This document shows, piece after piece, positions 5,778 to 37,492 of a stretch of DNA of 64,000 nt. Origin of the DNA: Pyrinomonadaceae bacterium (lineage in GTDB: Bacteria > Acidobacteriota > Blastocatellia > Pyrinomonadales > Pyrinomonadaceae); the NCBI GenBank assembly GCA_965214585.1, contig OZ243957.1, positions 567,331 through 631,330 on the forward strand, written 5' to 3'. The stretch's first letter is position 1; each line of letters begins with the position of its first letter. A program made the translations under genes and the position numbers. The notes beneath the pieces were generated by a model, which ran no database searches, was not told the DNA's origin, and saw nothing but the letters and a program-made list of their open reading frames with translations.

Positions 5778-7145
5778 TTGAACGAAATCAAACCGACAGT
5801 AATGAAATTCGGTGGAACGAGCGTCAAAGACGCGGCGGCTTTTGCGCGTGTCGCCGGGATCGTCGCGGGGCAAAAAGACTTTTCGCCCGTTGTCGTAACT
5901 TCCGCGATGGCAAGATTTACGGACGCTTTGCTGAACGCCTTTGAAACGGCAAAAAAAGGCGACTCAAGCGTTGCGTTTTCTTCTTTGACGGAACATTTCG
6001 ACAGGCACGAAAAAGTTTCAGACGAACTTCTCGAAGAAACGCAAAAAACCGCTTTTGAAATAGAATTAAGACTTGCCAGAGGCGAACTTTCCGATCTGCT
6101 TTTGCGCGTTGAACGCCGAAGTTTGCCGCTTTCGATGCTTAAAGACGCGATTGTTTCCTACGGCGAACAGCTATCTTCGCATCTTTTGGCGGAAGTCTGT
6201 AAGGTAAATAGAATAAACGCCAGACAAATGGACGCACGGCGTTTGATCGTAACGGACGAAGAATACGGCGCGGCGCATCCCGTTTGGAGCGAAACGGAAA
6301 AGTTAATAAATTTAGAATTGGAAAATTTGATCGCGGACGGCGAAGTTCCCGTTCTCGGCGGTTTTATCGCGGCGAGCAGAACAGGCGAAACGACGACTTT
6401 GGGGCGCGGCGGTTCGGATTATTCGGCGGCACTAATCGGCGCGGCACTTCGCGCAAGGGAAATTCAAATTTGGACGGACGTAACCGGCGTTTTGACGTGC
6501 GATCCGCGAATTTGCCCCGAAGCCGAAACTTTGGACGTGCTTTCCTACGAAGAAGCGGCGGAACTCGCCTATTTCGGCGCGAAAGTTCTGCATCCCAAGA
6601 CGATAAAACCCGCCGTTGATTACGAAATCCCCGTCCGCGTCTGCAACTCCAATCAGCCGCACGAAAAAGGCACGATGATCTTAGCCGAAAGCAAAGTTTC
6701 GCCGAATAAGATCAAATCAATCGCGCACAAAACGGGAATTACGATTGTGCGAATCTCGTCGGCGCGGATGCTCGGCTCTTACGGTTTTATGAGCGCGTTA
6801 TTCCAGATTTTTGAACGCTTCCGCACCGTGATTGACGTAATTTCAACGTCCGAAGTTTCCGTCGCTTTAACGCTTGACAACACCGATTCGCTTGACAAAA
6901 TAATCATCGAATTAGAACGGCTCGGCGAAACCGAAGTCGAGCATAACAACGCCGTCATCTGCGTCGTCGGCGAAGGTCTGCGCTCGACTTCCGGCTTGGC
7001 TTCAAAACTTTTTTCGACCATCGAAGACATCCCGATTTCGCTTATCTCCCACGGCGCGTCGAGCGTAAATTTAACTTTTGTCGTCAAGGAAGAAAAAGTT
7101 GCGGACGTAATAAAAAGGCTGCATAATAAATTTTTTAATGAATAA
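5778..7145 (+). CDS. lysC: aspartate kinase
   Basis: 455 aa; VMKFGGTSV N-terminal kinase motif, C-terminal ACT domains; TTG start with AAGGGA upstream. Confidence 0.85.
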   Translation: MNEIKPTVMKFGGTSVKDAAAFARVAGIVAGQKDFSPVVVTSAMARFTDALLNAFETAKKGDSSVAFSSLTEHFDRHEKVSDELLEETQKTAFEIELRLARGELSDLLLRVERRSLPLSMLKDAIVSYGEQLSSHLLAEVCKVNRINARQMDARRLIVTDEEYGAAHPVWSETEKLINLELENLIADGEVPVLGGFIAASRTGETTTLGRGGSDYSAALIGAALRAREIQIWTDVTGVLTCDPRICPEAETLDVLSYEEAAELAYFGAKVLHPKTIKPAVDYEIPVRVCNSNQPHEKGTMILAESKVSPNKIKSIAHKTGITIVRISSARMLGSYGFMSALFQIFERFRTVIDVISTSEVSVALTLDNTDSLDKIIIELERLGETEVEHNNAVICVVGEGLRSTSGLASKLFSTIEDIPISLISHGASSVNLTFVVKEEKVADVIKRLHNKFFNE

Positions 7146-7319: not shown

Positions 7320-10088
7320 TTATCTAATTACTTCCCCGTCAGCGTTCAATTTAATAACTTCGCCGAAACCCAAACTGCGAACGCCTGTTTCGATTTTTGA
7401 AACGTCGCCGACGATCAGCCAGATTATTTCGTCGGGACGGACAAATTTTCGTCCGGCGGTTTCAAGCTGCGTTTCGGTCAAACCGCGCATCTTTGCACCG
7501 TAGTTTGCCCAATAATTGTCGGGCAAATTGTAATTTACAAGGTCAATCGCCGCCGATTCGAGCGACGAAAGTGTTTCAAATCTGCCCGGTAATCTCAAGG
7601 TCATATTTCGCATAATGCTTTGGAATTCTTCGCCCGTTACGGGACGATTTCCGGCGACATCGGCGATCTCTTTTTTGACTTCGACGATTGATTCCTTCGT
7701 TTTGTCCGTCTGCACGGGCGCGAGAACGAGAAATGTTCTTTGCCCACGAGCGTCGCGCAATGCGCCGGAAGTTCCGTAACTCCAATGTTTGTCGAGCCGC
7801 AAATTGCGATTCAGACGCGACGTTGACATTCCGCCAAAGTTGCGGAAAAGCGGTTCGCCCGCAAGGTCTTCCGGTTGTCCGCTGGCTTCGGAAATGTGCG
7901 CGGCGACGATGGTTGATTGCGGTGCGCCGGGTTTATCAATCAAGTAGATTTTTTTGCCCGCCGTTTTCGCCACGTTCGAGATGTTTTTCTTCGGCGCAGT
8001 TCCGGCTTTCCAATTGCCGAACGCTTCTTCGAGCATCGGCGTAACTTTTGCCAGCGTCGTGTCGCCCGTAACAATAATCGTCGAACTTCCCGGTTTGAAC
8101 CAATCGGAATGCCATTTTATTAAATCTTCGCGTGAAATTGTTTGTATAGTTTCTTCCGTTCCCGAATTTGTCGTGCCGTAAGCGTGATTTGCGCCGTAGA
8201 GAATCGCGGGCAGAATCCGCAGAGCAAGCTGGTTTGCCGTCGCTTTTTCCTGTCCGATCTGCGCGATGCGGTTTTGTTTTTGAATCGTAAAAAGTTCGTT
8301 CGGAAACGCCGGATTCAAAACGACATCCGACATAATTCCGAGCGACGGTTTCAGATTTTCCGAAGTCGCCTGAAGGCGAACAAACGACAAATCGAGCGAA
8401 CTTCCGGTATTCAAACGCGCTCCCAAAGAATCCAATTGATTGACAATTTCAAACGCATCGCGCGTTTTCGTGCCTTCGTCCATCAAACTCAAAGCAAGCG
8501 AAGCAAGTCCGGCTTTCGACGGCGAATCCGAAGCGTAGCCCGCATCAACCGCGAGCGCGACATTTACAATCGGCGCGGAATGTCTTTCAAGTAAAATCAC
8601 ATTCAAACCGTTTTTGAGTTTCGCGCGTTGAACTTCGGGAAATTTGATTTCCGGCGCATTACTAAGCGGCGGCAAAATCTTGCGGTCAATTTCCGTTTTT
8701 CCGGCAGTCAAATTATCGAACGGTTTGACGAGCATCGTGTAATGATTCGCCTTCAACCATTTATTCGCCGTCATTTTAACCATTTCCGGCGTTGCCGTCG
8801 CCATCGCTTCCAGACGTTTCAAATAAAAATCGGGTTCGCCGCCGTAAGTCATACTTTCCGCCAAAATATCCGAACGTCCGCCGAAACCGCCGAGCCGTTC
8901 CGTGCCGCGCAAAAAGCCTGAAAGATTGCGGCTTTGCGCTCTTTGTAATTCTTCATTTGTAACGCCTTTTTCCAATGCTTCATTGATAATCGCGTCCATT
9001 TCCCTTTCGACATCCGCCGGATTGACGTTCGGTTTGACCGTTGCGATAAAAATCACGCTGCTCGCCAATTCGCCGTCGTTGACAAACGCCGAAACGTCCG
9101 TCGCCAACTCTTTTTCGTAAATCAGTTTTTTATTAAGCCGCGCACTTTTTGAACCGGAAAGAACATCGGCAAAAAGACCGAGATTCTGCAATTCCAAATC
9201 TTTCCAAGCCGGAGCGTGATAAACGCGGTAAATCCTCGCTTGCGGAACTCTGTCCTGCATTTCGTCGCGGATATTTCTGTCTAACGCCGGAATCCATTTT
9301 TCCGTTCTCGGAAGCGGCGGTCCCGGTTTTATGCCGTCGAAATATTTTTTGACAAGTTCCAAAGCTCTCTGCGGCGTAATGTCGCCCGCTAAAGAAATGA
9401 CGGCGTTGTTCGGTCCGTAATAAGTCCGATACCATTCTTTAACATCTTCCAAAGACGCGGCATTCAAATCTTCCATCGAACCGATGGTTGACCACGAATA
9501 AGGATGCGAATACGGATAAATCTTCGCGCTGATCTCGGAAAAAACGCCGCCGTAAGGACGATTTTCACCCTGCCGTTTTTCGTTTTTTACAACTCCGCGC
9601 TCGCGCTCAAGCATTTCTTTTGAAATATAATTTTCCAGAAAACCCATTCTGTCCGCTTCCAGATAAAGCGTTCTTTCTAAAGCGGATGTCGGCACGTCTT
9701 CAAAAAAATTCGTCCGATCCGTGTTCGTCGTCCCGTTCCGATTATTCGCGCCGATGTCGTCCATCGCTTCGCGGAAACCCGACGGGAAATTTTCCGAACC
9801 GTTAAAAAAGAAATGTTCAAAAAGATGTGCAAATCCCGTCTTGCCGCGTTTTTCGTTGCGCGAACCGACGTGATACCACATATTTACGCCGACAACGGGA
9901 ACGCTCTTGTCTTCGTGAACAAGCAGAGTCAAACCGTTGTCGAGAACAAATTTTTCGTATTTGATGTTGTAACGGCTTTTGTCGAATTTTTGTTTGTTGT
10001 TCATCTGCTGTGCAAAAACAGGCGTTTGCGCCAATTGTGCCGCAACTAAAAATAGAGCGACGAAAAAGATAAAAAATTGTCTTTTCAT
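7320..10088 (-). CDS. secreted double-unit M16 (pitrilysin/insulinase-family) zinc metallopeptidase
   Basis: 922 aa; signal peptide; inverted zinc motif HLFEH(x)nE; two tandem M16 units; AAGGA SD. Confidence 0.8.
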   Translation of the reverse strand: MKRQFFIFFVALFLVAAQLAQTPVFAQQMNNKQKFDKSRYNIKYEKFVLDNGLTLLVHEDKSVPVVGVNMWYHVGSRNEKRGKTGFAHLFEHFFFNGSENFPSGFREAMDDIGANNRNGTTNTDRTNFFEDVPTSALERTLYLEADRMGFLENYISKEMLERERGVVKNEKRQGENRPYGGVFSEISAKIYPYSHPYSWSTIGSMEDLNAASLEDVKEWYRTYYGPNNAVISLAGDITPQRALELVKKYFDGIKPGPPLPRTEKWIPALDRNIRDEMQDRVPQARIYRVYHAPAWKDLELQNLGLFADVLSGSKSARLNKKLIYEKELATDVSAFVNDGELASSVIFIATVKPNVNPADVEREMDAIINEALEKGVTNEELQRAQSRNLSGFLRGTERLGGFGGRSDILAESMTYGGEPDFYLKRLEAMATATPEMVKMTANKWLKANHYTMLVKPFDNLTAGKTEIDRKILPPLSNAPEIKFPEVQRAKLKNGLNVILLERHSAPIVNVALAVDAGYASDSPSKAGLASLALSLMDEGTKTRDAFEIVNQLDSLGARLNTGSSLDLSFVRLQATSENLKPSLGIMSDVVLNPAFPNELFTIQKQNRIAQIGQEKATANQLALRILPAILYGANHAYGTTNSGTEETIQTISREDLIKWHSDWFKPGSSTIIVTGDTTLAKVTPMLEEAFGNWKAGTAPKKNISNVAKTAGKKIYLIDKPGAPQSTIVAAHISEASGQPEDLAGEPLFRNFGGMSTSRLNRNLRLDKHWSYGTSGALRDARGQRTFLVLAPVQTDKTKESIVEVKKEIADVAGNRPVTGEEFQSIMRNMTLRLPGRFETLSSLESAAIDLVNYNLPDNYWANYGAKMRGLTETQLETAGRKFVRPDEIIWLIVGDVSKIETGVRSLGFGEVIKLNADGEVIR

Positions 10089-10380: not shown

Positions 10381-12708
10381 TCATACCGAGAAAGTTAAGA
10401 TACCGCTTTTGTCTAACTTTACGCTGACTTTACGAATTTTCCGTTCGTGATTTTCCAACAAAAACTTCGCCAACGGCGCACTCAAAAGCGTTTCAATCGT
10501 GCGCTGCAAAGGTCTCGCGCCGTAACTCGGATCAAAACCTTTTTCTGCTAAAAATTCGATTATTTCTTTTGTCCAGACGAGTTCGATATTTTTCTCCGTC
10601 AAGCCTTCGCGCTTCATTATCGCACCGATTTCCTTTTCCGTAATTTCATAAAGCGCATTTTTATCAAGCGTTTTAAATTGCACGACGGCATCGAGCCGAT
10701 TAAAAAATTCGGGACGAAAAAACTGTTTTATTTCCTTCAGATTCAAGATGTTTTCGTTTTCATTAAAACCGATTTCGCCCTTTGCAAACCGCTTCGCGCC
10801 GAGATTTGAAGTCATAATAACAACGCTCGACGTAAAATTCGTAACGCGCCCGAAACGGTCTGTCAATCTGCCTTCGTCAAACAAACCCAAAAGCACGTCA
10901 AAAACCTGCGCGTCCGCTTTTTCGACCTCATCAAAAAGCACGACGCTAAACGGATTTTCGCGCACTTTTTGAATCAAATCCGAAGGCGAACCGTGCGATT
11001 TCGTCAACAGCCGCGTCGCCGAACCGATACCAGAATACTCGCTCATATCAACGCGCACGATTTTCTCTTTCTGCTCATCAGTTTCGCCGAAAAAGAAACG
11101 CGCCAAAACTTTTGCAAGTTCGGTTTTCCCAACGCCCGTCGGACCCGTAAAAAGCAAAACTCCAAGCGGACGCGCTTTGTCATTCAAACCTGCTTTAAAT
11201 GTCGTAACAATTCCCGCAACTTGCTCGCACGCCTGCGGCTGCCCGATAACCTGACGCTCGAACTCCGCGACAACATCTTCAAAATTCAGAGTGATTTCAT
11301 CCAGCAAAAACAGTTCGGGCAAACCCGTCAATTTTATAAAATTTTCAATGACATCTTCGTTCGTAATCTCTTTTTTCCCCTTTTCAAAAACCTGCGCTAA
11401 AAACTGCGTCGTTCGTCCGGGAAATTTTTGATACGGCACGAAGCGCGAAAAAAGTCTGTAAATCAAATTTATCGAGTTTGCCGAATATGAAATGTGCCGA
11501 TTTCGCGCCTGAATTTCGGCAATCTGCGTCAAAACGTCCAACGCCGCTTCCGCCGTAAATTCCGGCAGATGAACAATCTGAAACTGCGCCGCAAAATTCG
11601 GCAGCATTCGCCGGCAAGCGTCCAATTCGGCGGATGTAGCTTCGCAAATCAGACGAAGTTCATTGCGCTCCAAATACGGCACGAGAAACGCCGCCAAACT
11701 TTCATTCGCATCGCGCCCGCCGTATCGCACCAAATCAAGCAGATTTTCCGCGCACAAAACGCCGTCAATATCGGAAAGTTCGCCGATTACTAATTCAAGT
11801 CGCTCTTCCCATTGCCCCAAATACTGCATTCCGGCGATCAATCTGCCGCCGTTCGTCTGCCAAAAACGATGCTTCGGATTTTTGTCTTCCCAATCTTCCT
11901 GCGCTTCCGTTTTGCCGCTTAAATCCCTTTCAATATTTCGCACCGCTTCTGTCAAAACGGTAGTTTTCCCCGTTCCGTTTTCGCCCAAAATTATCACGCT
12001 CGCCCGTTCATTCGTCAGACGTTTTACCAAATCATTAACTTCCGCGTCGCGCCCGTAAGCCTTTGAAATTTTTTTGTTTAAATATTTCGCGCCAAGCGGT
12101 TCGGCGACTTTTTCGAGATTCGGAATTTCCTTAAAAGTTTCCGTTTCCTTTTTCCTGCGCCGCGACTGAAACGAGATTTCTTCGAGCCAAAACTCTTTCG
12201 GCGGCAAAACGCTTGCCAAATCAAGCGGCGTTTGCCCGCGCAATTCTTCCTGAACTTTCATCCGCACCAGATTTTTCAATTCGCTCTCCCGATTAAAAAC
12301 AAATTCGATGTCAAACAACGGCAAACTCGCATAAAAATCGCCGCCCGCATTTTTCCAATACACACACGCCACGCGCAGCGGAAAAACTTCTTCCGCCGTA
12401 AAAGTCCTTTTTTTCAACGGACGCTTGCTCTTTTTCCGCCGCCCTTCGTCATCGGTTTTGATCTCGAATTCCGGGCGCAGTTCAACACGAAATTCCAACA
12501 ATTTCGCCTCCGAATATTCCGGCTGTTCGCGCCAATATTCATCTTCAAAAAGCCATTGCAAATGCTCTTTGAGTTCCGAAACAGCACGATCTTTCTTCGC
12601 ATTAAAAGCCGCCGGAGGAAAATATTCACCTTCGCCCGTAATCGCGTGCGCGGTAAAATTTCCGCCGAAATCCTGCCAGATTAAAATTGGAATGCGAAAT
12701 GTCGCCAT
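10381..12708 (-). CDS. ClpA/ClpB-family double-ring AAA+ ATPase paralog 1 (novel N-domain, degenerate D1 Walker B, no M-domain)
   Basis: 775 aa from MATFRIPIL (ORF extends to 12747). D1 Walker A GENGTGKTT, Walker-B position LCAENL. D2 Walker A GPTGVGKTE, Walker B VVLFDEVEKA, sensor SNLG, arginine finger/sensor-2 GARPLQR. IGF tripeptide at the ClpA IGL-loop position. Confidence 0.8.
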   Translation of the reverse strand: MATFRIPILIWQDFGGNFTAHAITGEGEYFPPAAFNAKKDRAVSELKEHLQWLFEDEYWREQPEYSEAKLLEFRVELRPEFEIKTDDEGRRKKSKRPLKKRTFTAEEVFPLRVACVYWKNAGGDFYASLPLFDIEFVFNRESELKNLVRMKVQEELRGQTPLDLASVLPPKEFWLEEISFQSRRRKKETETFKEIPNLEKVAEPLGAKYLNKKISKAYGRDAEVNDLVKRLTNERASVIILGENGTGKTTVLTEAVRNIERDLSGKTEAQEDWEDKNPKHRFWQTNGGRLIAGMQYLGQWEERLELVIGELSDIDGVLCAENLLDLVRYGGRDANESLAAFLVPYLERNELRLICEATSAELDACRRMLPNFAAQFQIVHLPEFTAEAALDVLTQIAEIQARNRHISYSANSINLIYRLFSRFVPYQKFPGRTTQFLAQVFEKGKKEITNEDVIENFIKLTGLPELFLLDEITLNFEDVVAEFERQVIGQPQACEQVAGIVTTFKAGLNDKARPLGVLLFTGPTGVGKTELAKVLARFFFGETDEQKEKIVRVDMSEYSGIGSATRLLTKSHGSPSDLIQKVRENPFSVVLFDEVEKADAQVFDVLLGLFDEGRLTDRFGRVTNFTSSVVIMTSNLGAKRFAKGEIGFNENENILNLKEIKQFFRPEFFNRLDAVVQFKTLDKNALYEITEKEIGAIMKREGLTEKNIELVWTKEIIEFLAEKGFDPSYGARPLQRTIETLLSAPLAKFLLENHERKIRKVSVKLDKSGILTFSV

Positions 12709-12709
12709 A

Positions 12710-12952
12710 TTATGTGATGAGAACGTCAAAGATTGAGCCGAAATCAACTACTTTGGAAGCAAATAAAAGACACGCCTTCAAATCTTCTTCCTCTAAATCA
12801 GGATAATCATTCAAAATTTCCTCAAACGTCATATCCGAAGCGAGCATTTCCAGAATATCTACCACCCGATAACGCAAACCGCGAACCGTTAAGTTTCCGT
12901 GACAGATTTCTGGATTCATCGTGATTCGTTTTAGTAAATCTCTTTCGCTCAT
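12710..12952 (-). CDS. DUF433 domain protein (antitoxin-like), translationally coupled to Clp-like ATPase 1
   Basis: MNPEICHGNLTVRGLRYRVVDILEMLASDMTFEEILNDYPDLEEEDL matches DUF433 consensus; stop TAA 1 nt before the ATG of the downstream ATPase gene; ORF is open up to 13126 so start uncertain. Confidence 0.55.
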   Translation of the reverse strand: MSERDLLKRITMNPEICHGNLTVRGLRYRVVDILEMLASDMTFEEILNDYPDLEEEDLKACLLFASKVVDFGSIFDVLIT

Positions 12953-13377
12953 AAAGAAAAATTCTAACTCGTTTTCGGTTTCATTCCAAACAAATTTGCC
13001 TTTTACTTTCTCACGCTGTAATCTTTCCGAATTTTTTATCACTAATAGACGAGTCGGCAAATTAAACGCCGTTTGAAAATTTAAAGGAGAATTTCCAAAC
13101 CACATAATTTGTCCGCCAATTCTCACAAATTCGCCGTTTTTGTTGTTAAAGCGGCGGCGATTATCTCACCGATCATATCCTCCGGCGGCACGAGTTTTTC
13201 GGAACGCGCTTTCTGCAATAAAAACCGTTCCGAAAAACTCGTGCCGCTTTCAGCAAACGACGAACATAAAAATTATTGCTTTTCGTCGTTTGAAAATGTA
13301 TATTTGGCAAAGTATCTTTTCCATAAAATTTGTTCACCGCCGAAAAAATAAAAAACTGTAAAAGAGGTTTTAAACAA

Positions 13378-13620
13378 ATGGATTTAGTAAAAGAAATTAC
13401 CGTTAAATCAAATTCGCTGCCGTTCGATCTTCAGCGTGAGGTGTTGGATTTTGTCGAGTTTATCGCGCATAAAAATCGTTCCGCAAATGAAGCGAAACCG
13501 TCCGCATTTCGGAGTGTGCGGGGAATTTTGAAAAACCGGAACTTAGAAAATCTTGAACGGGATTTAGCCGAAGTGCGCCGCGAGATGTGGCAAAACTTTC
13601 CGCGTGAGGAAATGAAATGA
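13378..13620 (+). CDS. DUF2281-like type II antitoxin
   Basis: 80 aa; AGAGG SD; LPFDLQREVLDFVEFIAHK motif shared with antitoxins at 39031 and 39405; ATGA overlap with following PIN gene. Confidence 0.6.
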   Translation: MDLVKEITVKSNSLPFDLQREVLDFVEFIAHKNRSANEAKPSAFRSVRGILKNRNLENLERDLAEVRREMWQNFPREEMK

Positions 13621-14024
13621 GCGCGATTGTTTCCGACACACATTCGCTTTTGTGGTATCTAAACGATTCCGCCAAACTTTCGGCTGACGCGCTTTTTTCT
13701 TTTGAACAAGCCGAAACGGATGGTCAACCGATTTATATTCCGGCGATTGTTTTAGTCGAAATACGTTATCTCGTCGAAAAGGGGCGCAATATTTTGGAGA
13801 GTGATTTTCAGTTGATAATCGGCGAAATGAAGAATCATCTGTCGGCTTTGACCTTTGCGCCGTTAAATCAACCGATCGCCGAAAATTTAGAACAAATTCA
13901 GCGCACTATTGTGCCGGATATGCCTGATAGAATTATTGCCGCAACCGCTTTTACATTGGGTGTGCCGCTTATCAGCAAAGACAGCCAAATTCAAAATCTG
14001 ACGAATATCAAAGTTGTTTGGTGA
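13617..14024 (+). CDS. PIN-domain ribonuclease toxin (VapC-like)
   Basis: 135 aa; PIN acidic residues (D6, E-x, D near C-term IIAATAF motif); 4-nt overlap with upstream antitoxin. Confidence 0.75.
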   Translation: MSAIVSDTHSLLWYLNDSAKLSADALFSFEQAETDGQPIYIPAIVLVEIRYLVEKGRNILESDFQLIIGEMKNHLSALTFAPLNQPIAENLEQIQRTIVPDMPDRIIAATAFTLGVPLISKDSQIQNLTNIKVVW

Positions 14025-14057
14025 TAATTTGGGAGAGGAGATTATAAACGACAAAAT

Positions 14058-17000
14058 TCAATCATTTATAAAATACGCATTTTTTGTCGCTAAACCGCTT
14101 AAAACAAAACTCCTAAGTTCACGAAAAGTCAGATTTTCCTTCGTAATCAAACCGGAACGAAAATCTAAAGCGATACCGCGTTCGTTGTAAATTCGGACGA
14201 CGGAAAAATCTTTTTCGGACTTTTTCTTGAGGTTTTCCGCGTAGATTTTTGAAAAACTTTCACTTGTTTTTAATTCGATAACATCAATTTCAATCGGCGT
14301 AAAATCGCCGCGTTTGGAAACGAAAATGTGATTGCCTGTTTCCGCGTTTGCCAAATCAAAAGCGAACATTCCTTCGAGCATCAGAAACATTTCAAAATAA
14401 TCGGTTTCAATCTCGTCGCCGTTTAATTCCGAAATTTTCAAACCCAATTCCTGTGCGAAAAATCGGCGATAGTTTTCCATAAATAAAGGAATTTTTTCCT
14501 TGCCGAAATAAACATCGGCACAACGAAAAATCATCACACATTTCGCGCTCAGAGGCTTTTCCAAATTTCCCGCAACTGCTTCTAAAAACGCCGTTTCGCG
14601 CCAAACGTCCTGCACATATTCTTCCGCCGCATTTCCAAAATCGGGATTTTCGAGCGCGAGATTTTTCAATTTGTTCGACAAATTTGAACCGCTTAAAAAC
14701 CTGCCGAAATCAATTTCCGCGTTTTTCAAAGAAACCAGACTCCGCCTTCCGGCTCTGGACTTTGGACTACGGACTCTGGACTCTTTCCAGCCGTCAGCGC
14801 GTTCGATCATTCGTTCGACGCGCTTGACGTATTCCTGCGCGAGAAAATATTTCGCCTGATTTTCGTCGTTCGGATCAATTTCTCCGTCGGGTTTAAGATG
14901 CAAAATCCCGGCTTCGATGCGGTCTAAAACGTCTTCGATTTTGTCGAGTTCCGCCGAAACATCCGAAAAATCGTGTGTTTGCCAAACGCTCGCGTCAAAA
15001 GCGAGAGGTTTGATTTCTTCGACGTTTGTTACAAATTCTTCTTTGAGGCGCGAAATTTTCACAATCGTCGGCGCGTTCGTATCAATCGCGGCGAGTCTAT
15101 TGGCAACGGGCTGAATTAAATTTCTCTCAATCGCACGTTTCAACGCCCGCGCACCGAGTTCCGCGTTGTAACCTTCATCAACAATTTTCTCCAGCGCGGA
15201 AGGTTCGAGTTCGATGCGGCAATTTCGGCGGACAAAACCTTCGCGGGCGAAAACTTTCTGCAATTGCAGACGCGCAATTCGCCCGACTTCTTCGCGGCGC
15301 AGATTTTCAAACGGAATAATTTTGTCCAGACGGTTAAAAAATTCCGGTCTGAAAAATTTCTCCGCCGCTTGCCGGTAAATGTTGGCGTTTGATTCGTTTG
15401 TTTCACGAAAACCGAGTTTGATATTCGCTTCGCGCGTGCCGAGATTCGATGTCAAAATTATCAACGCATTTGAAAAATCCGCCGTCCGCCCGAACGCATC
15501 GGTCAGGCGACCTTCGCCCAAAACCTGCAAAAGCAAATTAAAAACATCCGCGTCGGCTTTTTCGATTTCATCCAAAAGCACGACGGAAAAAGGCTGTCGT
15601 CGAATTGCACTCGTCAAAAGTCCTTCCGGTTGGTCAAACGTGCCGACCAGCCGCGCCACGTCAAACGGCGACACAAATTCGTTCATATCAAACCTAAGGA
15701 GTTTTTCTTCCGCACCGTAAAGATACGCGGCGATCTGCTTGGCGGCTTCGGTTTTCCCAACGCCCGTCGCGCCGAGAAACAGAAACGACGCAAGCGGTCT
15801 GCCCGTGTCATTTAGCCGCGCTTTGGCGATTGAAATAACATCGGCGGCGGCTTCGATTGCGGGTTTTTGTCCGATTAAGTTTTCGGAAATCTTTTCGACG
15901 ATTTCCGTCTTTTCCAGTTTTTCGCGGTCATCCAAAAACGCCACTTTCAAACCGCTTTTCGCCTCAAATTCTTTTAAAACATCGTCGCGTGAAATTTCGG
16001 AATCTTGAAATTTATTGGCGATTTGTTTCAAAAAACTCGCCGCCTTTCCGGGAAACGACGCTTCGCGGTTATAACGTCTTTGCAAATCGAGCGCGGTTGG
16101 TAAAACGTCCAAATCGAAACGGCAATCGTGTTTGTGTTCGGCTTCGCGCCTGACCGAAAGCGCGATTTTCAGAGTCTTTTCTTCGCTCGTTTCTTCGAGC
16201 CGGAAAACGTGAAAAAGTTCAGCAAAACTGCGGTCTTTTTCCTTCAAAACGCGAAAAGTTTCCGGCGTAATTTCGCCGACAACGCGAACGTCGCGGCGTT
16301 CGATATACGGTTTTAAAACCTGCGCGACATTCAAATCCGAATTCGCGCTCACGCCCGCGAAAAACAGTCCGAGCAAATCATCAAAATACAACAAATGATT
16401 GTGTTTTTGCGCCGTCTTCAAAATCGCCGTCAGCCGATTTTCCCATTGCCCGACAAACGACATTCCCGAAATCAGACGCTGCGGCGAAATCAGCCACGTC
16501 AGATTTTTGTCCGAACTTTTATTTTTGCGGCTGGTCAATTTTTGAAAAACGTATTCGTGAATCAAATTTGTCTTCCCGACCTGATTTTTACCGACGACGA
16601 TCACCGGGCGTTTGTCCTTTGATTCCAACAACTTAGTAAGTTCGTCTAACTCGTTTTCACGCCCGTTCGCGCGTTCCAAATCGTTGGGAAAAAGTTCGTC
16701 CAAGCTGCGTCCGACGCGCCGCAATTCGCGTCCGCCGTCGAGATGCGATTCGCCGCCGAGCATCGCAAACAGATTTTCCTCTTGGGCTTCATATTTTTGC
16801 GGCAGATGCACATTCAATTCGAGCGTCGTAACAAACGCTTTAACTATAAAAGTATTATCTTCCGGGGTTTGCGAATCTTCCCCGTCGCGCCGTTCGAGAT
16901 GGCGAAAATGTTCGGTCAAAACTTCCACGGCGCGAGTCTGCAAATCTTCGCCGCGCTCGATTTCAAACCAGATTTCCGGCACATTCGGCGTGAACGCGAT

Positions 17001-17318
17001 TTTTTTGCCGAATGCGTCAAGGATCACGAAAAGATATTCGCAATCGAAACTTTTTGAAGCGAGAAACAGACGAAATTTCAAAATCTTCGACGAAAAAACG
17101 GGCGAAAATGTGAACCACGCAAGATCGTAATGACGCGGCTTTTTCCCGTGTTCTTCAAACTGATTTCGCAAACTCTGCGTCAATTTATTGATCGCTCTCT
17201 GCAAACTTTTTCCTTGCTCGGAGGTGTTCAAATTAAAAAGCGGACGCACTACAACCGTCGGCGCGGAATTCTTCAGCGGTTTATGTTCGGTTGCCAAAAT
17301 TGGAATTGTCAGCAGCAT
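14058..17318 (-). CDS. ClpA/ClpB-family double-ring AAA+ ATPase paralog 2 with ~230-aa unique N-domain and ~330-aa C-terminal extension
   Basis: 1086 aa. D1 GKNQVGKTN with Walker B LLYFDDLL (DD not DE). D2 GATGVGKTE, VVLLDEIEKA, SNLG, GARALKR. LGF at the IGL-loop position. N- and C-domains are paralogous to those of the gene at 17990-21229. Confidence 0.8.
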   Translation of the reverse strand: MLLTIPILATEHKPLKNSAPTVVVRPLFNLNTSEQGKSLQRAINKLTQSLRNQFEEHGKKPRHYDLAWFTFSPVFSSKILKFRLFLASKSFDCEYLFVILDAFGKKIAFTPNVPEIWFEIERGEDLQTRAVEVLTEHFRHLERRDGEDSQTPEDNTFIVKAFVTTLELNVHLPQKYEAQEENLFAMLGGESHLDGGRELRRVGRSLDELFPNDLERANGRENELDELTKLLESKDKRPVIVVGKNQVGKTNLIHEYVFQKLTSRKNKSSDKNLTWLISPQRLISGMSFVGQWENRLTAILKTAQKHNHLLYFDDLLGLFFAGVSANSDLNVAQVLKPYIERRDVRVVGEITPETFRVLKEKDRSFAELFHVFRLEETSEEKTLKIALSVRREAEHKHDCRFDLDVLPTALDLQRRYNREASFPGKAASFLKQIANKFQDSEISRDDVLKEFEAKSGLKVAFLDDREKLEKTEIVEKISENLIGQKPAIEAAADVISIAKARLNDTGRPLASFLFLGATGVGKTEAAKQIAAYLYGAEEKLLRFDMNEFVSPFDVARLVGTFDQPEGLLTSAIRRQPFSVVLLDEIEKADADVFNLLLQVLGEGRLTDAFGRTADFSNALIILTSNLGTREANIKLGFRETNESNANIYRQAAEKFFRPEFFNRLDKIIPFENLRREEVGRIARLQLQKVFAREGFVRRNCRIELEPSALEKIVDEGYNAELGARALKRAIERNLIQPVANRLAAIDTNAPTIVKISRLKEEFVTNVEEIKPLAFDASVWQTHDFSDVSAELDKIEDVLDRIEAGILHLKPDGEIDPNDENQAKYFLAQEYVKRVERMIERADGWKESRVRSPKSRAGRRSLVSLKNAEIDFGRFLSGSNLSNKLKNLALENPDFGNAAEEYVQDVWRETAFLEAVAGNLEKPLSAKCVMIFRCADVYFGKEKIPLFMENYRRFFAQELGLKISELNGDEIETDYFEMFLMLEGMFAFDLANAETGNHIFVSKRGDFTPIEIDVIELKTSESFSKIYAENLKKKSEKDFSVVRIYNERGIALDFRSGLITKENLTFRELRSFVLSGLATKNAYFIND

Positions 17319-17330
17319 TCTTTTTCGATT

Positions 17331-17463
17331 TTCACCACGGAGGCGCGGAGGACACGGAGTTTTTTAAAGTAAAGACATTAAAATTTGGAACTTCAAACGA
17401 AACTCGGCAAATTTAAAATATCACTTTAAAAACCTCCCGTGTTCTCCGCGCCTCCGTGGTGAA
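17331..17463. repeat. hairpin element D copy 1 (29-30-nt inverted arms ttcaccacggaggcgcggag[g/a]acacggag, ~74-nt loop)
   Basis: arms at 17331-17359 and 17434-17463; begins 13 nt upstream of ATPase-2 start codon. Confidence 0.8.
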
Positions 17464-17469
17464 CCCGTC

Positions 17470-17841
17470 TTAGTTCACAACTCTTTTGATACCTTGTTTC
17501 AAAAGCACTACATTAAAATTCATCAATAAACCTACCTTTTTTTGTGCCAACTTCAGATATGTCAAAAGTTGCGCCTGATGAATCGGTAATAATTCACGAA
17601 CTGATTTTATTTCGAGGATAATTTTATCTTCGACGATAATATCAAGTCGGTAATCCACATCAATTGAAACACCTTCATAAATTATCGGCAAATAAACCTG
17701 AGTTTCAATATTTAAGCCCGCTTTTCTCAACTCATACGCCAAACATTTTTCGTAAGCACTTTCTAAAAGTCCGGGACCTAAAATCCTGTGAACTTTAATC
17801 GCACATTCAATAATTTTTCCGCTGATTTCGCTAAATTCCAT
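17470..17841 (-). CDS. GxxExxY family protein (PD-(D/E)xK nuclease-like fold)
   Basis: ATG at 17841 with perfect AAGGAG SD; GPGLLESAY = GxxExxY signature; D...EIK nuclease-like motif (RLDIIVEDKIILEIK); 123 aa. Confidence 0.8.
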   Translation of the reverse strand: MEFSEISGKIIECAIKVHRILGPGLLESAYEKCLAYELRKAGLNIETQVYLPIIYEGVSIDVDYRLDIIVEDKIILEIKSVRELLPIHQAQLLTYLKLAQKKVGLLMNFNVVLLKQGIKRVVN

Positions 17842-17857
17842 AAATCTCCTTTTATTT

Positions 17858-17986
17858 TTCACCACGGAGGCGCGGAGAACACGGAGATTTTTTATTGATA
17901 TTTTGATTGGTTAAAATCTAACTGAATCTTAAATCTTAGAATCCCACTTTAAAAAACTCCGTGTTCTCCGCGCCTCCGTGGTGAAA
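17858..17986. repeat. hairpin element D copy 2 (29-nt near-perfect inverted arms, ~71-nt loop)
   Basis: arms at 17858-17886 and 17958-17986; ends 4 nt before the stop codon of ATPase 3. Confidence 0.8.
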
Positions 17987-17989
17987 TAT

Positions 17990-20900
17990 TCATCCAATCA
18001 AATTTTCCGATGTTTCAATTAAATTCGTTTCAATCCACTCGATTAAAACCGTTTGCAAATCAATATTTTCAAGCGAAAAAGTCTTTTCCAAAAACAAATC
18101 TTTGACCTTATTTTGTGCCAAATCATAAACGCGCCGTTCGGTTTGAAACTTTACGGAATCGCGTTTTATCAAATCTTCGGGAAGTTCGTATTTTACAAAT
18201 TCCGCTTCGGTTAAATCAATCAAAACGCGGTTGCTTCGCGTGCCGTGAACAAAGCGGTGAACGCCCGTTTCTGCGCCGAAACGCGGCAGAGCGAGTTCGC
18301 CTTCGATGGAAAGCAAAACGCCGAAAGTTTCCTGTGATGCGGACTTTATAAATTTTTCCGCGTCCGCGATTTCCTTGCGATAGACGGCGCGATTAAAAAG
18401 CAGTTTGTCTTCGATTTTAACGTCTTTTTGTTTTTCCGTCGTGAACGCCAGACAATTTGTGATTTCCGCTTTTGAATGTTTGAAACAAACCGCGAACAGA
18501 CGCAAAAGTTTGAATAACTCGCTCGCGTTTTCGCTGAAAAATGCGAGTTTTATTTCGTTCGGATTTTGATATTGGAATTTCAAAAGTTTAAAAAGATAAT
18601 CTTGAAACTGATTTTCTTTTTTAATTATTTCATCGGCGTATTTTCGGTTTTCGCCCGCCGATTTTCCGTAGATTTCAAGCAGAATTTCATCTTCCGTTCG
18701 GCTGACTTCAAAGGCAAAATCTTTAACATTTTTCAAAAATTTTTCGATTTTCAATTTGCGTTCGATGCGTTTTCGGTCTTCGTCATAAATCCATTTCCCG
18801 CGTTTTTGGGCGGCTTCAAGCCGAATAATTTGATAAATTTCATCGCTTAATTCGGTCAAACGATAACTGGTGAGAAGTTTCTGCGTTCGGCGGCGAAGTT
18901 CGGCGATGCGTTCGGCATTTGTCGCTAAAATTGCCGTCGCCGTTTTACGCTTTTTCGGTTCGTCTTCGCGGATAAAATCGAGCGCGATTTTTCCGTTTTT
19001 AACTGCGGTTTCGACAATCAATTTTTCATCCGTCGGGCGCAAATTGAGTTCGGCGGAAAGCGGCGCGAGCAGATTTTTTTCAATAATCCGTTTCAGCGGA
19101 CGCGCTCCGTAACGAATGTCGTAACCCGTTTTTGCTAAATGCTTTAACACATCTTTGCCGATTTCCAATTTAACGGGACGAAACCGCAAACCGTCGCGCA
19201 TTTTCAGTTTTTCGATTTCCAAATCGGCGATTTTCAACACGGTTTTTTCGTCCAGCGGCGCGAACGGAACGATGCGGTCAAGCCGATTAAAAATTTCCGG
19301 TCTGAGAAAATCACGGACGGCGGAATCGAAATGTTTAACGGCGGCTTGTTTTTGCCGCGAATTATTTACAAAACCGGACTTTCCGCGCTGAAATTCGCTC
19401 GCGCCGAGATTTGATGTCATTACGATAATCGAATTTGTAAAATCCGCCGTGCGTCCGGCGGAATCGGTCAGACGACCTTCGCCGAGCATCTGCAAAAGCA
19501 GATCGAAAAACGAAGAATGCGCTTTTTCAAATTCGTCTAAAAGCACAACCGAGAAAGGCTGTTCGCGCACCTTCGCCGTTAAAAGTCCTTCCGCTTCGCC
19601 CGTTCCGCCGATCAGACGCTGCACCGAAATTGCGTTTGAAAATTCGCTCATATCAAAACGAATCATTCTCGATTCGTCGGAAAAGAAAAATTTGGCGAGC
19701 GATTTTGTCAATTCGGTTTTGCCGACTCCGGTTGGACCGATAAATAAAAGCGAAGCAATCGGTTTTCGCGGGCGCGTGAGTTTTGCTTTAACCGTTGCAA
19801 TCAAATCGGTTATCAGTTTCACGGCTTCATTTTGTCCGATGACTTTTTCCGCAAAAAACTTTTCCGTTTGCGATAAATTGAGCCGGATTTCGTCATTTAA
19901 AAGCAGTTCGGGCAAACCTGTTTCGTTTGAAAATTCCGCGTAAACTTTTTTTATCGAAAGTGTTTCGCCGTTTTCCAAACCGGCAAAAACATTTCGCAAA
20001 AATCTGGCAGGTCTGCCGGGAAAAGCCGAATATGTCGAATATCGGCGATGAATTTGGTCAATCGTTTTTATCGCGTTTGTGTCGGCTTTGTTTGAAAATT
20101 CCTTCGCCGCCGATTCTAAAATTTTCCGGCTCGTTTTTTTGTTCGGTTCTTCGATGCGGATTTGCTGAAACGCGCTCAAAAGATTCGGGTCGCTTTTTTC
20201 CAGAACCGGAATTTGTTCGGGTGTGCATTCGACGGCGACGACGATTTCGCCGCGGGCGATTTTCGGGCGCAGAAACGACGCGATGCCTTGCGTCGAATGG
20301 CTGCTTTTGCCGACTTCGAGCAGTTCGATCAAGTTTCCCAAATGCAAAATCGCGTTTTCTTTTTTCGCCTCGTCAATCAATTTTGAAGCGCGTTCCTGCC
20401 ACATTCCGAATCCGGTTTGTCCGGCGATCAGACGCGCACCGCTTGTCGCCCAAAACTTAAATTCCTTCAAACCGAGTTTTTCACGACGGCGCACCATTTC
20501 ATTGAAAATTGCCGTTTTTCCAACGCCCGCCGCGCCGACTAATAAAACGCCCGTCCGCTGATTTCCTTTGAAAATCTCCGCTAGAAGTTCCGTCTGTTTT
20601 TCCGTTTCGTAAGCGGTTTTTAGTTTTACGTTTGTTAAATCCGTGCCGATTTCTTCTAAAACGGATTTCTTTTCCGCTTCGTCTTTTTCTTCGGCAATCG
20701 CGCGTTGCTTCGCCGTCGGAAGATTGACGGCGAGTTCGTTTTTTTCGATGGAAATATTTTCGGTGCGTTCGAGCCAGCGCAGATATTGCAGAGATTTCGT
20801 CCAACCGTCGCGTTTGAGCGCGGCGAGAATTTCCGTTTCTATTTTCGCTTCAAAATCCTTTTGTTTTCTGGATAAAACAGCGATGTGAAGCGCGGGAATA

Positions 20901-21229
20901 TATGCGTAAAAATAACCGTCTTCGCGCTCGATTTTTACATAGTGAATTTTTACTTTCACCGCATCGCGCCACATTTCCGTCTTTTTCGGCGGTTCGATTT
21001 CCAATTCGATTTCCTTGATCTCCGCGTTTTCCGGCACGATTCGCTTGTATAAATTCGCGGCGTAATCGGCTTTTAAAATCACGTCTGCGTTAACACGGGC
21101 GTTATGTTTTGCCGAATCTTCTTTTGTGTGAAAGCGCGATATTTCGGGAAAATTCAACGCTTCGGAAATGAAAGTTTCGTCTTCGAGATGCTGCGTCAAA
21201 ATTATGAGCGAAAAAAAATGTGTCGGCAT
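17990..21229 (-). CDS. ClpA/ClpB-family double-ring AAA+ ATPase paralog 3 with unique N-domain and ~330-aa C-terminal extension
   Basis: 1079 aa. D1 GAAGVGKTA with degenerate Walker B LHLGNLIE. D2 GPTGVGKTE, VVLLDEFEKA, SNLG, GARPLKR. SGF at the IGL-loop position. C-terminal AETGxHxFV motif shared with paralog 2. Confidence 0.8.
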   Translation of the reverse strand: MPTHFFSLIILTQHLEDETFISEALNFPEISRFHTKEDSAKHNARVNADVILKADYAANLYKRIVPENAEIKEIELEIEPPKKTEMWRDAVKVKIHYVKIEREDGYFYAYIPALHIAVLSRKQKDFEAKIETEILAALKRDGWTKSLQYLRWLERTENISIEKNELAVNLPTAKQRAIAEEKDEAEKKSVLEEIGTDLTNVKLKTAYETEKQTELLAEIFKGNQRTGVLLVGAAGVGKTAIFNEMVRRREKLGLKEFKFWATSGARLIAGQTGFGMWQERASKLIDEAKKENAILHLGNLIELLEVGKSSHSTQGIASFLRPKIARGEIVVAVECTPEQIPVLEKSDPNLLSAFQQIRIEEPNKKTSRKILESAAKEFSNKADTNAIKTIDQIHRRYSTYSAFPGRPARFLRNVFAGLENGETLSIKKVYAEFSNETGLPELLLNDEIRLNLSQTEKFFAEKVIGQNEAVKLITDLIATVKAKLTRPRKPIASLLFIGPTGVGKTELTKSLAKFFFSDESRMIRFDMSEFSNAISVQRLIGGTGEAEGLLTAKVREQPFSVVLLDEFEKAHSSFFDLLLQMLGEGRLTDSAGRTADFTNSIIVMTSNLGASEFQRGKSGFVNNSRQKQAAVKHFDSAVRDFLRPEIFNRLDRIVPFAPLDEKTVLKIADLEIEKLKMRDGLRFRPVKLEIGKDVLKHLAKTGYDIRYGARPLKRIIEKNLLAPLSAELNLRPTDEKLIVETAVKNGKIALDFIREDEPKKRKTATAILATNAERIAELRRRTQKLLTSYRLTELSDEIYQIIRLEAAQKRGKWIYDEDRKRIERKLKIEKFLKNVKDFAFEVSRTEDEILLEIYGKSAGENRKYADEIIKKENQFQDYLFKLLKFQYQNPNEIKLAFFSENASELFKLLRLFAVCFKHSKAEITNCLAFTTEKQKDVKIEDKLLFNRAVYRKEIADAEKFIKSASQETFGVLLSIEGELALPRFGAETGVHRFVHGTRSNRVLIDLTEAEFVKYELPEDLIKRDSVKFQTERRVYDLAQNKVKDLFLEKTFSLENIDLQTVLIEWIETNLIETSENLIG

Positions 21230-26339: not shown

Positions 26340-26489
26340 ATTGCTCTATTAATTACAAATTAGGCATTGATAATTTTGGCATTATGTCACGAAAAAATCT
26401 AATACGGCTTACCAGTAAATAGGTTCGATATAATGCAGAAACACGCACGAAGTAAGTGTGTCTTTTGCACACTTACTTCGTGCGTGTTT
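26340..26489. repeat. repeat family F copy (aggcattgataatt...tgtcacgaaaaaa) followed by 25-bp-stem perfect hairpin (26431-26489)
   Basis: shared motif with 35085-35160; gcagaaacacgcacgaagtaagtgtg / cacacttacttcgtgcgtgtttctgc exact inverted arms. Confidence 0.65.
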
Positions 26490-26559
26490 CTGCAAAACCG
26501 ACTTATCATACCTGCCAAATGATTCTCGGTATAAAACATACAAGAGATAAAACAAAGGT

Positions 26560-27835: not shown

Positions 27836-29140
27836 ATGACTGACGAAAAACTCGTTCGCGGCATCAGCCGTTGGGATTTGACGGCGATCACGATCAACAC
27901 GATTATCGGCGCGGGAATTTTCGGTCTGCCATCAAAAGTCGCCGCGCTGATCGGCACATACAGCCTCGTCGCGTTCGCCGTCTGCGCCGTGATTACGGCG
28001 TTTCTCGTAATTTGTTTTGCCGAAGTCGCCAGCCGTTTTCGCACAACCGGCGGAATGTATCTCTACGCGCACGAAGCGTTCGGCTCGCTCGCCGGTTTTG
28101 AAGTCGGCTGGCTTTACTGGGTCGTGCGCGTGACGACTTTCGCCGCCAACTGCAATTTACTGCTCGCTTATCTCGGTTTTTTCTACCCGTCGGCAAATGA
28201 AGGCGGCGTTCGCATTTTGCTGATCGCCGTAATAATTCTGGTAATAACGTGGGTAAATTTTATCGGCGTAAAAGAATCGGCGATTGTTACAAACATTTTT
28301 ACAGTCGGAAAAATCGTGCCTTTGCTGATTTTTGCACTTGTCGGGATGTTTTTCATTCAACCGGAAAATTTCAATTTTACCGCTTCGCCCGGATACGGAA
28401 ATTTTTCCGAAGCCGTTTTGATTTTAATTTACGCCTTCGTCGGCTTTGAAGCGGCGGTAATTCCGGCGGGCGAAACGAAAGACCCGCAAAAAAACGTCCC
28501 GTTCGCGCTTTTAACCGCGCTCGCAATTTGCGCCGTTTTGTATATTTTAATTCAAATCGTTTCCATCGGAACGCTGCCGAATTTAGCAAGTTCCGAACGC
28601 CCGATTGCCGATGCCGCAAGCATATTTCTCGGCACATTCGGCGCGTCATTTATTACAATCGGCGCGTTAATTTCGATTTTCGGCAACTTAAACGGCGGTT
28701 TTCTAACCGCTTCGCGCATCCCGTTTGCGATGGCGGAACACAGAGAACTTCCCCAAGTTTTGGCAAAAACGCACGACAAATTTAAAACGCCGTTCGTTTC
28801 CCTGTTTCTGACATCAATCGTAATTTTCATTTTCACCCTGCAAACATCGTTCATCGCCGCTTTAACAATCAGCACGATCACGCGCTTGATCGTCTATTCG
28901 ACAACCTGCGCCGCGCTGCCCGTTTTCCGCAACCGCGAAAACGCGCCGAAAGCCGAATTTCTCGTTCCGTTCGGCGTAATCGCTTCGATTTTATCTCTGA
29001 TTTTAGTCATTTGGCTGCTGACCAATGTTGATTTTCGCAAAGAAGGTCTGGCGATTTTAGCCGTCGCGCTCGTCGGTTTGGTTTTATATTTCGTCAACAA
29101 ATTTTTCAGTAATAAAGACGAAGAAATTGCCCGCGAATAA
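27836..29140 (+). CDS. APC-family amino acid permease
   Basis: 434 aa; ~12 TM helices; APC signature region GAGIFGLPSKVAALIGTYS. Confidence 0.75.
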   Translation: MTDEKLVRGISRWDLTAITINTIIGAGIFGLPSKVAALIGTYSLVAFAVCAVITAFLVICFAEVASRFRTTGGMYLYAHEAFGSLAGFEVGWLYWVVRVTTFAANCNLLLAYLGFFYPSANEGGVRILLIAVIILVITWVNFIGVKESAIVTNIFTVGKIVPLLIFALVGMFFIQPENFNFTASPGYGNFSEAVLILIYAFVGFEAAVIPAGETKDPQKNVPFALLTALAICAVLYILIQIVSIGTLPNLASSERPIADAASIFLGTFGASFITIGALISIFGNLNGGFLTASRIPFAMAEHRELPQVLAKTHDKFKTPFVSLFLTSIVIFIFTLQTSFIAALTISTITRLIVYSTTCAALPVFRNRENAPKAEFLVPFGVIASILSLILVIWLLTNVDFRKEGLAILAVALVGLVLYFVNKFFSNKDEEIARE

Positions 29141-29376: not shown

Positions 29377-29386
29377 CAAAATATCT

Positions 29387-37490: not shown

Positions 37491-37492
37491 AA

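Follow-up and report, generated by a model that had tools for sequence, protein, structure and literature searches.

An insertion-polymorphic GxxExxY nuclease-like gene cassette bounded by inverted heptad arrays in a Pyrinomonadaceae genome

What kind of unit is the short segment that separates two large ATPase genes in a Pyrinomonadaceae bacterium, where a small open reading frame (ORF) of the GxxExxY family lies enclosed between two long hairpins? The segment occupies positions 17330–17986 of a 64-kb stretch (64,000 nt) of contig OZ243957.1, which was analysed as a whole and is referred to below as the window. It comprises ~656 bp bounded by its outermost repeat arms, and is missing from the orthologous spacer of two related operons, L120 and L121. 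Its description as an insertion-polymorphic GxxExxY cassette with the tri-heptad arms typical of its family is well supported, and the assembled evidence suggests that such mini gene cassettes form a widespread class, self-contained and probably selfish, which has apparently escaped description.

Both hairpins are evident in the sequence and were recovered by a repeat finder. The first (133 bp, 17331–17463) pairs arms at 17331–17359 and 17435–17463 across a 75-nt loop, and the second (128 bp, 17858–17985) pairs arms at 17858–17886 and 17957–17985, a perfect 29-bp core, across a loop of 70 nt. A first-pass annotation had described two near-identical long-stem hairpins closely flanking the gene, with 29-nt arms and loops of ~72 nt, and this description holds, as do the distances it gave to the neighbouring genes once ORF coordinates are consulted. 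Element 1 sits between the GxxExxY stop codon, to which it is close, and the start codon of one ATPase (ATPase-2), 13 nt away, and element 2 lies 16 nt upstream of the GxxExxY ATG and 4 nt past the stop codon (17990–17992) of the other (ATPase-3). Stems of both elements are near-perfect over 29–35 bp and their arms read TTCACCACGGAGGCGCGGAG(G/A)ACACGGAG; in element 1 a tri-heptad regular expression resolves the arm into TTCAC followed by the heptads CACGGAG, CGCGGAG and CACGGAG. The arm TTCACCACGGAGGCGCGGAGRACACGGAG occurs four times in the window, each time at the GxxExxY gene, with zero occurrences expected from shuffled sequences. Folding yields about −73 to −78 kcal/mol per element, alike on both strands, with z-scores of −10 to −15 relative to shuffles (−73 to −78 kcal/mol and z −10 to −12 for element 1, −73 kcal/mol and z −14 to −15 for element 2). 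The outermost arms (17330–17370 and 17946–17986) are 98% complementary over 41 nt, exceeding the arm match inside element 1, so that the whole 656-bp unit is also a single element bounded by inverted repeats. The gene of this copy sits between two copies of a gene-less hairpin, each arm being doubled into a hairpin of ~130 bp.

The suggestion that these hairpins serve as transcription attenuators did not survive. A terminator scan identified none at either hairpin, no T-run follows the stems, and the loops measure 70–75 nt; a role as intrinsic terminator or attenuator was rejected for lack of a T-run terminator. The two perfect stems found here may still be sites of RNA processing. At gathering thresholds Rfam returned only a tRNA-Sec across the whole window, with nothing at the hairpins and no rRNA.

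The enclosed gene (17470–17841, minus strand, 123 aa plus stop, ATG at 17841) is preceded by a Shine-Dalgarno sequence read from the DNA (AAGGAG, 17846–17851, minus strand, 4 nt before the ATG), which in this copy is accessible because it lies outside the hairpin stem. Its product matches PF13366 (PDDEXK_3; E 9e-44, 149 bits, cut-off 22), the only Pfam match, and TIGR04256 (E 7e-45, 152 bits, cut-off 35), and is by these full-length matches above curated cut-offs a member of the GxxExxY family. E27 (of the GxxExxY motif), D67, E77-x-K79 and Q91xxxY95, motifs of RecB/Cas4 nucleases, are invariant in 33 homologues, and the putative catalytic residues E27, D67, E77 and K79 are intact in the window protein together with the Q91xxxY95 motif. 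The defining arrangement of the PD-(D/E)xK superfamily, a catalytic D...(D/E)xK on an alpha-beta-beta-beta-alpha-beta core, is present, and the protein is a predicted minimal Cas4/RecB-like PD-(D/E)xK nuclease. The assignment to the PD-(D/E)xK nucleases proposed in the first-pass annotation is upheld. A search of PDB sequences with the family profile gave no match. Fold comparison scored highest for the Cas4 proteins SSO0001 (11.0, 27% identity) and Pcal_0546 (9.2), followed by the BpuSI nuclease domain (8.8), Dna2 (8.3) and Hjc (6.9); lambda exonuclease is among the Foldseek matches, and the catalytic domain of I-Bth0305I also appeared in the fold search.

Resemblance to Cas4 does not extend to identity with it. 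The window protein is about half the size of Cas4 and lacks its four-cysteine Fe-S module, since only two cysteines occur in its 123 residues and no four-Cys cluster can be formed. PADLOC Cas4 profiles match weakly (E 5e-4 over 50 residues) and assign no defence system, and no CRISPR-cas context was seen in the examined parts of the window. Identity as Cas4 was ruled out by the two cysteines, the AAA+ ATPase neighbours and the weak PADLOC match. The family itself is very large, with 33,732 clusters at 50% identity in a profile search, and in the searchable literature it receives incidental mentions and no functional study. N-terminal extensions, frequent in database ORF calls of this family (for example TTEDTE, NHEDTK or LNHRGTEITE), are translated arms. 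Separately, the best-scoring family representatives (P0361–P0370 and similar) are 270–295 aa long with two tandem GxxExxY domains, and could represent genuine fusions or ORF calls that run through neighbouring cassettes.

Relatives of the host operon reveal how the unit came to lie there. It interrupts a conserved run of three ClpA/B-like double AAA+ ATPases in tandem (about 1080, 1086 and 788 aa), located at 10381–21229 in the window and also present in L120 and L121. ATPase-3 (1079 aa, 17990–21229, minus strand) lies upstream of the cassette and co-oriented with it, ATPase-2 (1086 aa, 14058–17318, minus strand), the second gene of the operon, lies downstream. The GxxExxY gene and both of these neighbours share one strand, and transcription probably reads through into the cassette from ATPase-3. 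In L121 (ATPase 74% identical) the ATPase-3/ATPase-2 spacer is 75 nt long and holds neither repeat nor GxxExxY gene. In L120 (ATPase 84% identical) a 151-nt spacer, also devoid of a GxxExxY gene, contains a gene-less hairpin (5856–5990) with three CGCGAA-type heptads per arm, and this hairpin occupies exactly the site of the window's cassette. Since these orthologous operons lack the GxxExxY gene, the unit in the window is an insertion, much as the first-pass annotation had supposed, and the same insertion with both hairpins (5863–5984 and 6378–6510) is present in a sister strain, L122. Between L122 and the window the GxxExxY gene is identical at 365 of 372 nt (98%) and thus better conserved than the flanking ATPase coding sequence (92–95%). 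The gene has kept its orientation, unlike at least one of the hairpin loops: the downstream loop aligns at 67 of 75 positions when inverted vs 54 of 75 in the same orientation, a clear inversion, and the upstream loop at 53 of 70 vs 43 of 70, a probable one. At one arm position the two strains differ by an A-T to G-C double change. The ATPase-3/ATPase-2 site therefore occurs in empty, other-hairpin and filled states, and at least one loop has flipped between strains.

The tie between arm and gene extends well beyond this operon. A protein-led sample of 80 metagenomic GxxExxY loci (53–68% amino acid identity) was searched for an inverted upstream/downstream arm pair scoring at least 30, using 71 shuffled controls, and such a pair brackets the gene in 63 of the 80 loci and in a single control. 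The density of tri-heptad arms is 5.3 per kb in the 150 nt on either side of the gene and drops to 0.09 per kb at distances above 400 nt, a 59-fold enrichment. The arms are strongly oriented, with 46 forward vs 13 reverse upstream of the gene and 57 reverse vs 9 forward downstream; the median distance from the end of the forward arm to the start codon is 28 nt. Among homologues the modal layout is a single arm, the gene and the inverted arm, and roughly 15% of loci (for example L130, L140 and L177) resemble the window in having a complete hairpin on at least one side of the gene. The earlier idea that hairpins are tied to GxxExxY genes is thus correct for inverted arms, which flank most of the genes examined, and incorrect for paired full hairpins, the family norm being one arm per side. 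These figures render it extremely improbable that generic REP-like elements or terminators merely happen to stand beside a small gene. Many other intergenic palindromes of several families do occur in the window and would suit such a coincidence, but this arm is confined to the GxxExxY gene within 64 kb, the same design recurs at unrelated GxxExxY loci far above the shuffled rate, and the T-run signature of a terminator is absent.

Position relative to host genes is also patterned. In 42 of 53 loci the closest ORF of 150 aa or more on the upstream side points the same way as the gene (p = 2e-5), and the window copy conforms to this; the orientation of the downstream neighbour is random (33 of 58), and median gaps to the neighbouring genes are 81 and 70 nt, so that cassettes fill the intergenic space. 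No promoter stands out upstream of the window's GxxExxY gene, promoter-like matches being found only inside the gene or the loops. Given this upstream co-orientation and the lack of an evident promoter, the cassettes seem to lack promoters of their own and to depend on host-gene read-through.

An analysis of the arms themselves bears on what is being conserved. They begin with T-T-[C/A/T]-A-C and continue with three, occasionally four, heptads of the form C-R-C-N-R-A-G, spaced 9 nt from start to start (range 8–11) by spacers of 1–3 nt. Words vary among loci (CACAGAG, CACGAAG, CGCCGAG, CGCAGAG, CACGGAG, CGCAAAG and others), and all six heptads of one locus are of the same kind, with within-locus agreement at heptad positions 2, 4 and 5 of 0.91, 0.69 and 0.93 vs 0.51, 0.32 and 0.55 in shuffled sets. 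Spacers agree far less between arms (identity 0.52 in gene-bracketing pairs and 0.43 in solo hairpins vs a background of ~0.36), and mismatches between arms show no sense-strand excess of G·U over A·C (50 vs 70, plus 165 transversions). From the non-complementary spacers and the missing G·U bias, conservation appears to act on the heptad in its inverted array rather than on a continuous stem; the window, with its two perfect stems, lies at the well-paired extreme of the family.

This matters for the possibility that the cassette is an RNA element akin to the intervening sequences (IVS) of 23S rRNA, in which the arms would pair in the read-through transcript and RNase III would cut the stem to free a small mRNA from the operon transcript, the nuclease being mere cargo. 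Each hairpin of the window copy would indeed form 29–35 bp of nearly perfect double-stranded RNA, and the preference for sites just downstream of co-oriented genes and the lack of an upstream promoter fit such a scheme. Further encouragement comes from the IVS of Coxiella 23S rRNA, a 428-nt selfish element of unknown function with a 28-bp stem of terminal inverted repeats, three heptamer repeats ahead of its S23p ORF, and excision by RNase III (PMC4990558), and from PF05635, the ORF family of IVS elements, which carries inverted tandem-repeat arms outside rRNA, including in the window. Family-wide, however, stems are poor and spacers essentially non-complementary; positionally corresponding heptads, which would face each other in a stem, are no more alike than others (0.90 vs 0.875), folding energy is equal on both strands, and a plain stem has no need for three copies of one word. 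Selection for RNA pairing was rejected on the missing G·U bias, the equal likeness of heptads, and the non-complementarity of spacers in gene-bracketing and solo arms alike. An IVS-like origin is consequently an unlikely explanation, if one to be kept in view.

The PF05635 family deserves separate description. Four-helix-bundle proteins annotated as "23S rRNA IVS proteins" occupy a niche similar to that of GxxExxY genes. In a sample of 57 loci from viral contigs, 44 of them distinct, inverted arms were found in 40 of the 44 distinct loci and in none of 44 shuffled counterparts, and 32 of these 40 arm sets are tandem repeats of period 7, in contrast to the period of 9 in GxxExxY arms. The window contains one such cassette (55799–56247), wedged between a tRNA-Sec (55696–55791) and dprA (56244–57374). 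Its ORF, annotated as a "23S rRNA intervening sequence protein" (55858–56247, plus strand, E 4e-18, four-helix bundle), is accompanied by four to five copies of the heptamer GGGATTT at 55799–55832 and their complement at 56208–56241, and its stop codon overlaps the ATG of dprA.

Arms of this kind are also found without any gene. The exact 21-nt arm core occurs in at least 119 stretches from many phyla, and the matches listed include Acidobacteriota, Planctomycetota, Verrucomicrobiota, Cyanobacteria, Chloroflexota, Gemmatimonadota, Spirochaetota, Bacteroidota and Proteobacteria. Within these listed matches the outer boundary is sharp and fixed, unrelated sequence giving way to T-T-N-A-C; an inverted partner lies downstream of 59 of 126 arms and upstream of 6, at spacings of 9–750 nt, and most pairs are gene-less, with 8–215 nt between the arms in 48 of 57 forward-to-reverse pairs. 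Three of the listed exact-core pairs enclose a GxxExxY gene and one a ClpP-like ORF, the latter being a CACGGAG-type pair around a 217-aa ORF in a Verrucomicrobiales metagenome-assembled genome (L020, 4125–4866). Across ~200 loci, that ORF was the one cargo other than GxxExxY seen inside C-R-C-N-R-A-G arms. The first-pass annotation had asked whether the hairpins always flank GxxExxY genes, and the association runs in one direction: genes are strongly associated with arms, yet the exact arm also forms gene-less hairpins in many genomes. Because the gene-to-arm association is so strong, these hairpins argue for non-autonomous relatives and not against the link. The exact 21-mer matches across phyla were not accepted as a sign of recent horizontal transfer; given the constrained grammar of the arms and the very large family, we infer that identical arms can recur independently.

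Two hairpins of a further kind were noted within the window. At 29127–29379 a gene-less hairpin has arms of three CGCGAAT-type heptads with the prefix TTTGCC, and another hairpin (AACAGGGATGAAGG...) is nested in its loop; at ~44704–44840 only a forward CGCGAAT-type arm, also with prefix TTTGCC, was found, adjoining a hairpin of the AACAGGGATGAAGG type. The hairpin in the ATPase-3/ATPase-2 spacer of L120 belongs to this same CGCGAA class.

Gene-less pairs raise the prospect that the arrays are ends for a trans-acting recombinase, transposase or host factor, with GxxExxY and four-helix-bundle genes as passengers, or as addiction or defence cargo, of hairpin-type miniature inverted-repeat transposable elements (MITEs). 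That two unrelated small-protein families have a common architecture, that most arm-found elements are gene-less among the matches listed, that a ClpP-like ORF lies inside one arm pair, and that a hairpin of a different class occupies the same intergenic site in L120 would all be expected of such a vehicle. It is nonetheless improbable, as the heptad word varies by locus and follows the clade of the enclosed protein, for which a single trans-acting factor fails as an explanation; each family has its own design (period 9 for GxxExxY, period 7 for PF05635), and the ClpP-like ORF is the only other cargo encountered inside C-R-C-N-R-A-G arms among ~200 loci.

Correspondence between word and protein is apparent at several levels. 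Heptad classes track protein clades, the CACGAAG class, for instance, coinciding with a clade whose members end in -FVL. Hairpins of the same word are found on the same contigs as the gene, and distant arms on a contig match the word of the resident gene in 10 of 19 cases, vs 1.9 expected. In L185 a second GxxExxY copy, recovered as two tblastn segments and probably degraded, adjoins the first, and its arm is built of another word. Because cassettes on one contig differ in word, the idea that the heptads act like Chi sites was rejected.

Locus-specific words that follow protein clades, together with a forward arm ending a median of 28 nt before the start codon, would also suit an autoregulated host nuclease, in which the arrays are operators by which the protein represses its own, potentially toxic expression through DNA looping and the gene serves host repair or defence without itself being mobile. 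The weak PADLOC similarity to Cas4 lends this some colour. Against it, a conserved operon occurs both with and without the insertion, many genomes contain scattered gene-less hairpins that have the same arms, and the cassette relies on upstream transcription with no evident promoter of its own, so that this explanation has a slim probability.

The reading that we favour, tentatively, is a self-recognising selfish nuclease cassette with a logic like that of REPIN/RAYT systems or homing endonucleases. It is preferred because words track clades, a pairing signature is absent, and the active site is intact. The heptads would be binding sites for the nuclease encoded between them, each protein lineage having its own word, and gene and arms together would form a self-recognising selfish unit. 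The nuclease would cut DNA bearing cognate arm pairs, and subsequent repair or copying, with the arms as homology, may spread or maintain the gene. Gene-less hairpins with the same arms would then be non-autonomous relatives or empty sites, and the cassette would be expressed by read-through from the upstream host gene. Such a cycle would resemble that of REPIN/RAYT elements or homing endonucleases while employing a hydrolytic nuclease.

Several observations weigh against this proposal. A hydrolytic PD-(D/E)xK nuclease is incapable of strand transfer by itself. Target-site duplications, for which the first-pass annotation had suggested looking, were sought over 108 arm pairs and not found: no duplication of 2–8 nt rose convincingly above shuffled expectation, and left/right identity drops to the background level at 5 nt beyond the first heptad. 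No single genome was seen to contain several near-identical cassettes, and in the 64 kb of this genome that were inspected the repeat has two hairpin copies, both at the gene. Homing into a hairpin loop would, in its simplest form, yield a layout other than the hairpin-gene-hairpin arrangement of the window. When heptad positions were compared with protein columns by mutual information, suggestive columns appeared at residues 8, 47 and 123, which are confounded by phylogeny. Moreover, the unrelated, non-nuclease PF05635 family shares the architecture of inverted tandem-heptamer arms, so that arms may act independently of the encoded protein or be recognised in trans, and in the 23S rRNA IVS they act as an RNA stem cut by RNase III (PMC4990558). 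The unrelated non-nuclease family and a nuclease unable to transpose alone count most strongly against self-recognition.

Neither the arm grammar nor its connection to GxxExxY was found described in the searchable open-access papers and bioRxiv. On the broadest view, GxxExxY genes (about 34,000 clusters at 50% identity) and, in parallel, four-helix-bundle genes would be very abundant, unrecognised minimal autonomous elements, in which proteins of ~120 aa read arrays of locus-specific 7-nt words that flank their own genes in inverted orientation and gene-less pairs are non-autonomous partners or empty sites, the GxxExxY version being the smallest known nuclease-driven mobile unit (~0.45 kb). 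We regard this generalisation as doubtful. GxxExxY is among the largest families without a known function, and the arm packaging suggests a concrete hypothesis, namely that the protein recognises its own arms. Were the broad view correct, the DNA-word specificities of the GxxExxY version would be readable and diversified by nature; should the recognition model be right, the family would offer a natural collection of small nucleases that differ in their 7-bp specificity, and the hairpins would form a new family of REP-like elements across many phyla. The parallel architecture of PF05635 also provides a link to the 30-year-old puzzle of ORF-bearing 23S rRNA intervening sequences. At a more practical level, arms account for a common annotation artefact, seen as the N-terminal extensions "TEDTEDTE" and "HRGTE" and as very short false ORFs such as "SVSSVPPW".

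Other features of the window complete the picture of the locus. The neighbours of the GxxExxY gene, called Clp-like in the first-pass annotation, are indeed ClpA/ClpB-like, though the three ATPases score far below the curated cut-offs of true ClpA, ClpB and ClpV and match the AAA+ profiles of PADLOC DolB and PDC-M37B only generically. An M16 peptidase follows the ATPase cluster in the window (7320–10088) and in L120. Between ATPase-2 and the 788-aa ATPase lie a DUF433 gene (12710–13126, minus strand) and a VapBC-like DUF2281/PIN pair (13330–13620 and 13617–14024, plus strand), a module missing in L120, L121 and L122, so that the same operon has gained a second accessory insertion. Another intergenic palindrome family, REP-like with arms of ~25–36 nt, has four copies in the window (29164–29298, 32837–32947, 37491–37628 and 44748–44840); its arms contain AACAGGGAT(R)AAGGAGAT and show no sequence kinship to the CACGGAG arms. 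Further perfect inverted repeats of 27–36 bp with short loops, all intergenic, lie at 63427–63573, 2395–2499, 5670–5744 and 26434–26494, and may be terminators or belong to other repeat families.

How, then, does the cassette compare with known systems? Work by Nunvar in 2010 and by Bertels and Rainey in 2011 reportedly described REP-associated tyrosine transposases (RAYTs) flanked by REP sequences. As in REPIN/RAYT systems, inverted copies of one repeat enclose a small gene and recur elsewhere as gene-less hairpin doublets, the setting is intergenic, there is no target-site duplication, and the hairpin-gene-hairpin layout of the window is that of REPIN-RAYT-REPIN. The enzyme, however, is a 123-aa hydrolytic Cas4-like PD-(D/E)xK nuclease and not an HUH/Y1 (IS200-like) transposase, the arms consist of three 7-nt words with non-complementary spacers and not of a single REP palindrome, and the GxxExxY family is often multi-copy, with different words per copy, in many phyla. 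REPIN/RAYT repeats are present in tens to hundreds of copies per genome; the 64 kb inspected here, out of a 4.5-Mb contig, contain two hairpin copies.

Neisseria Correia elements are bacterial MITEs of ~100–160 bp with terminal inverted repeats. Like MITEs of this type, the hairpins described here are long and intergenic and can be co-transcribed with their neighbours, whereas no target-site duplication was detected at them, their arms are built of repeated heptads, and a cognate gene lies between the arms. Free-standing homing endonuclease genes, including that of the PD-(D/E)xK enzyme I-Ssp6803I, share with the cassette a presence/absence polymorphism at a precise intergenic position between conserved flanks, and in both the gene would interrupt its own bipartite recognition site. 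They differ in that the cassette has conserved repeated arms on both sides and that its gene-less pairs are found at many unrelated sites, with no single conserved target.

The intervening sequences of 23S rRNA in Coxiella and Leptospira are likewise units of ~0.4–0.7 kb in which a small ORF is closed by terminal inverted repeats of ~28 bp, with heptamer repeats beside the ORF start; they are inserted in and co-transcribed with a host transcript, and are regarded as selfish (PMC4990558). Unlike them, the cassette lies between protein-coding genes and not in a helix of 23S rRNA, its ORF is a predicted nuclease and not a four-helix bundle, its heptads are 9 nt apart and not in tandem at 7 nt, and its arms carry no family-wide sign of selected pairing. 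The cassette resembles REPIN/RAYT systems, rRNA intervening sequences, MITEs and homing genes, yet departs from each in a defining feature, and it is a realistic possibility that minimal mobile elements of a new class are represented here.

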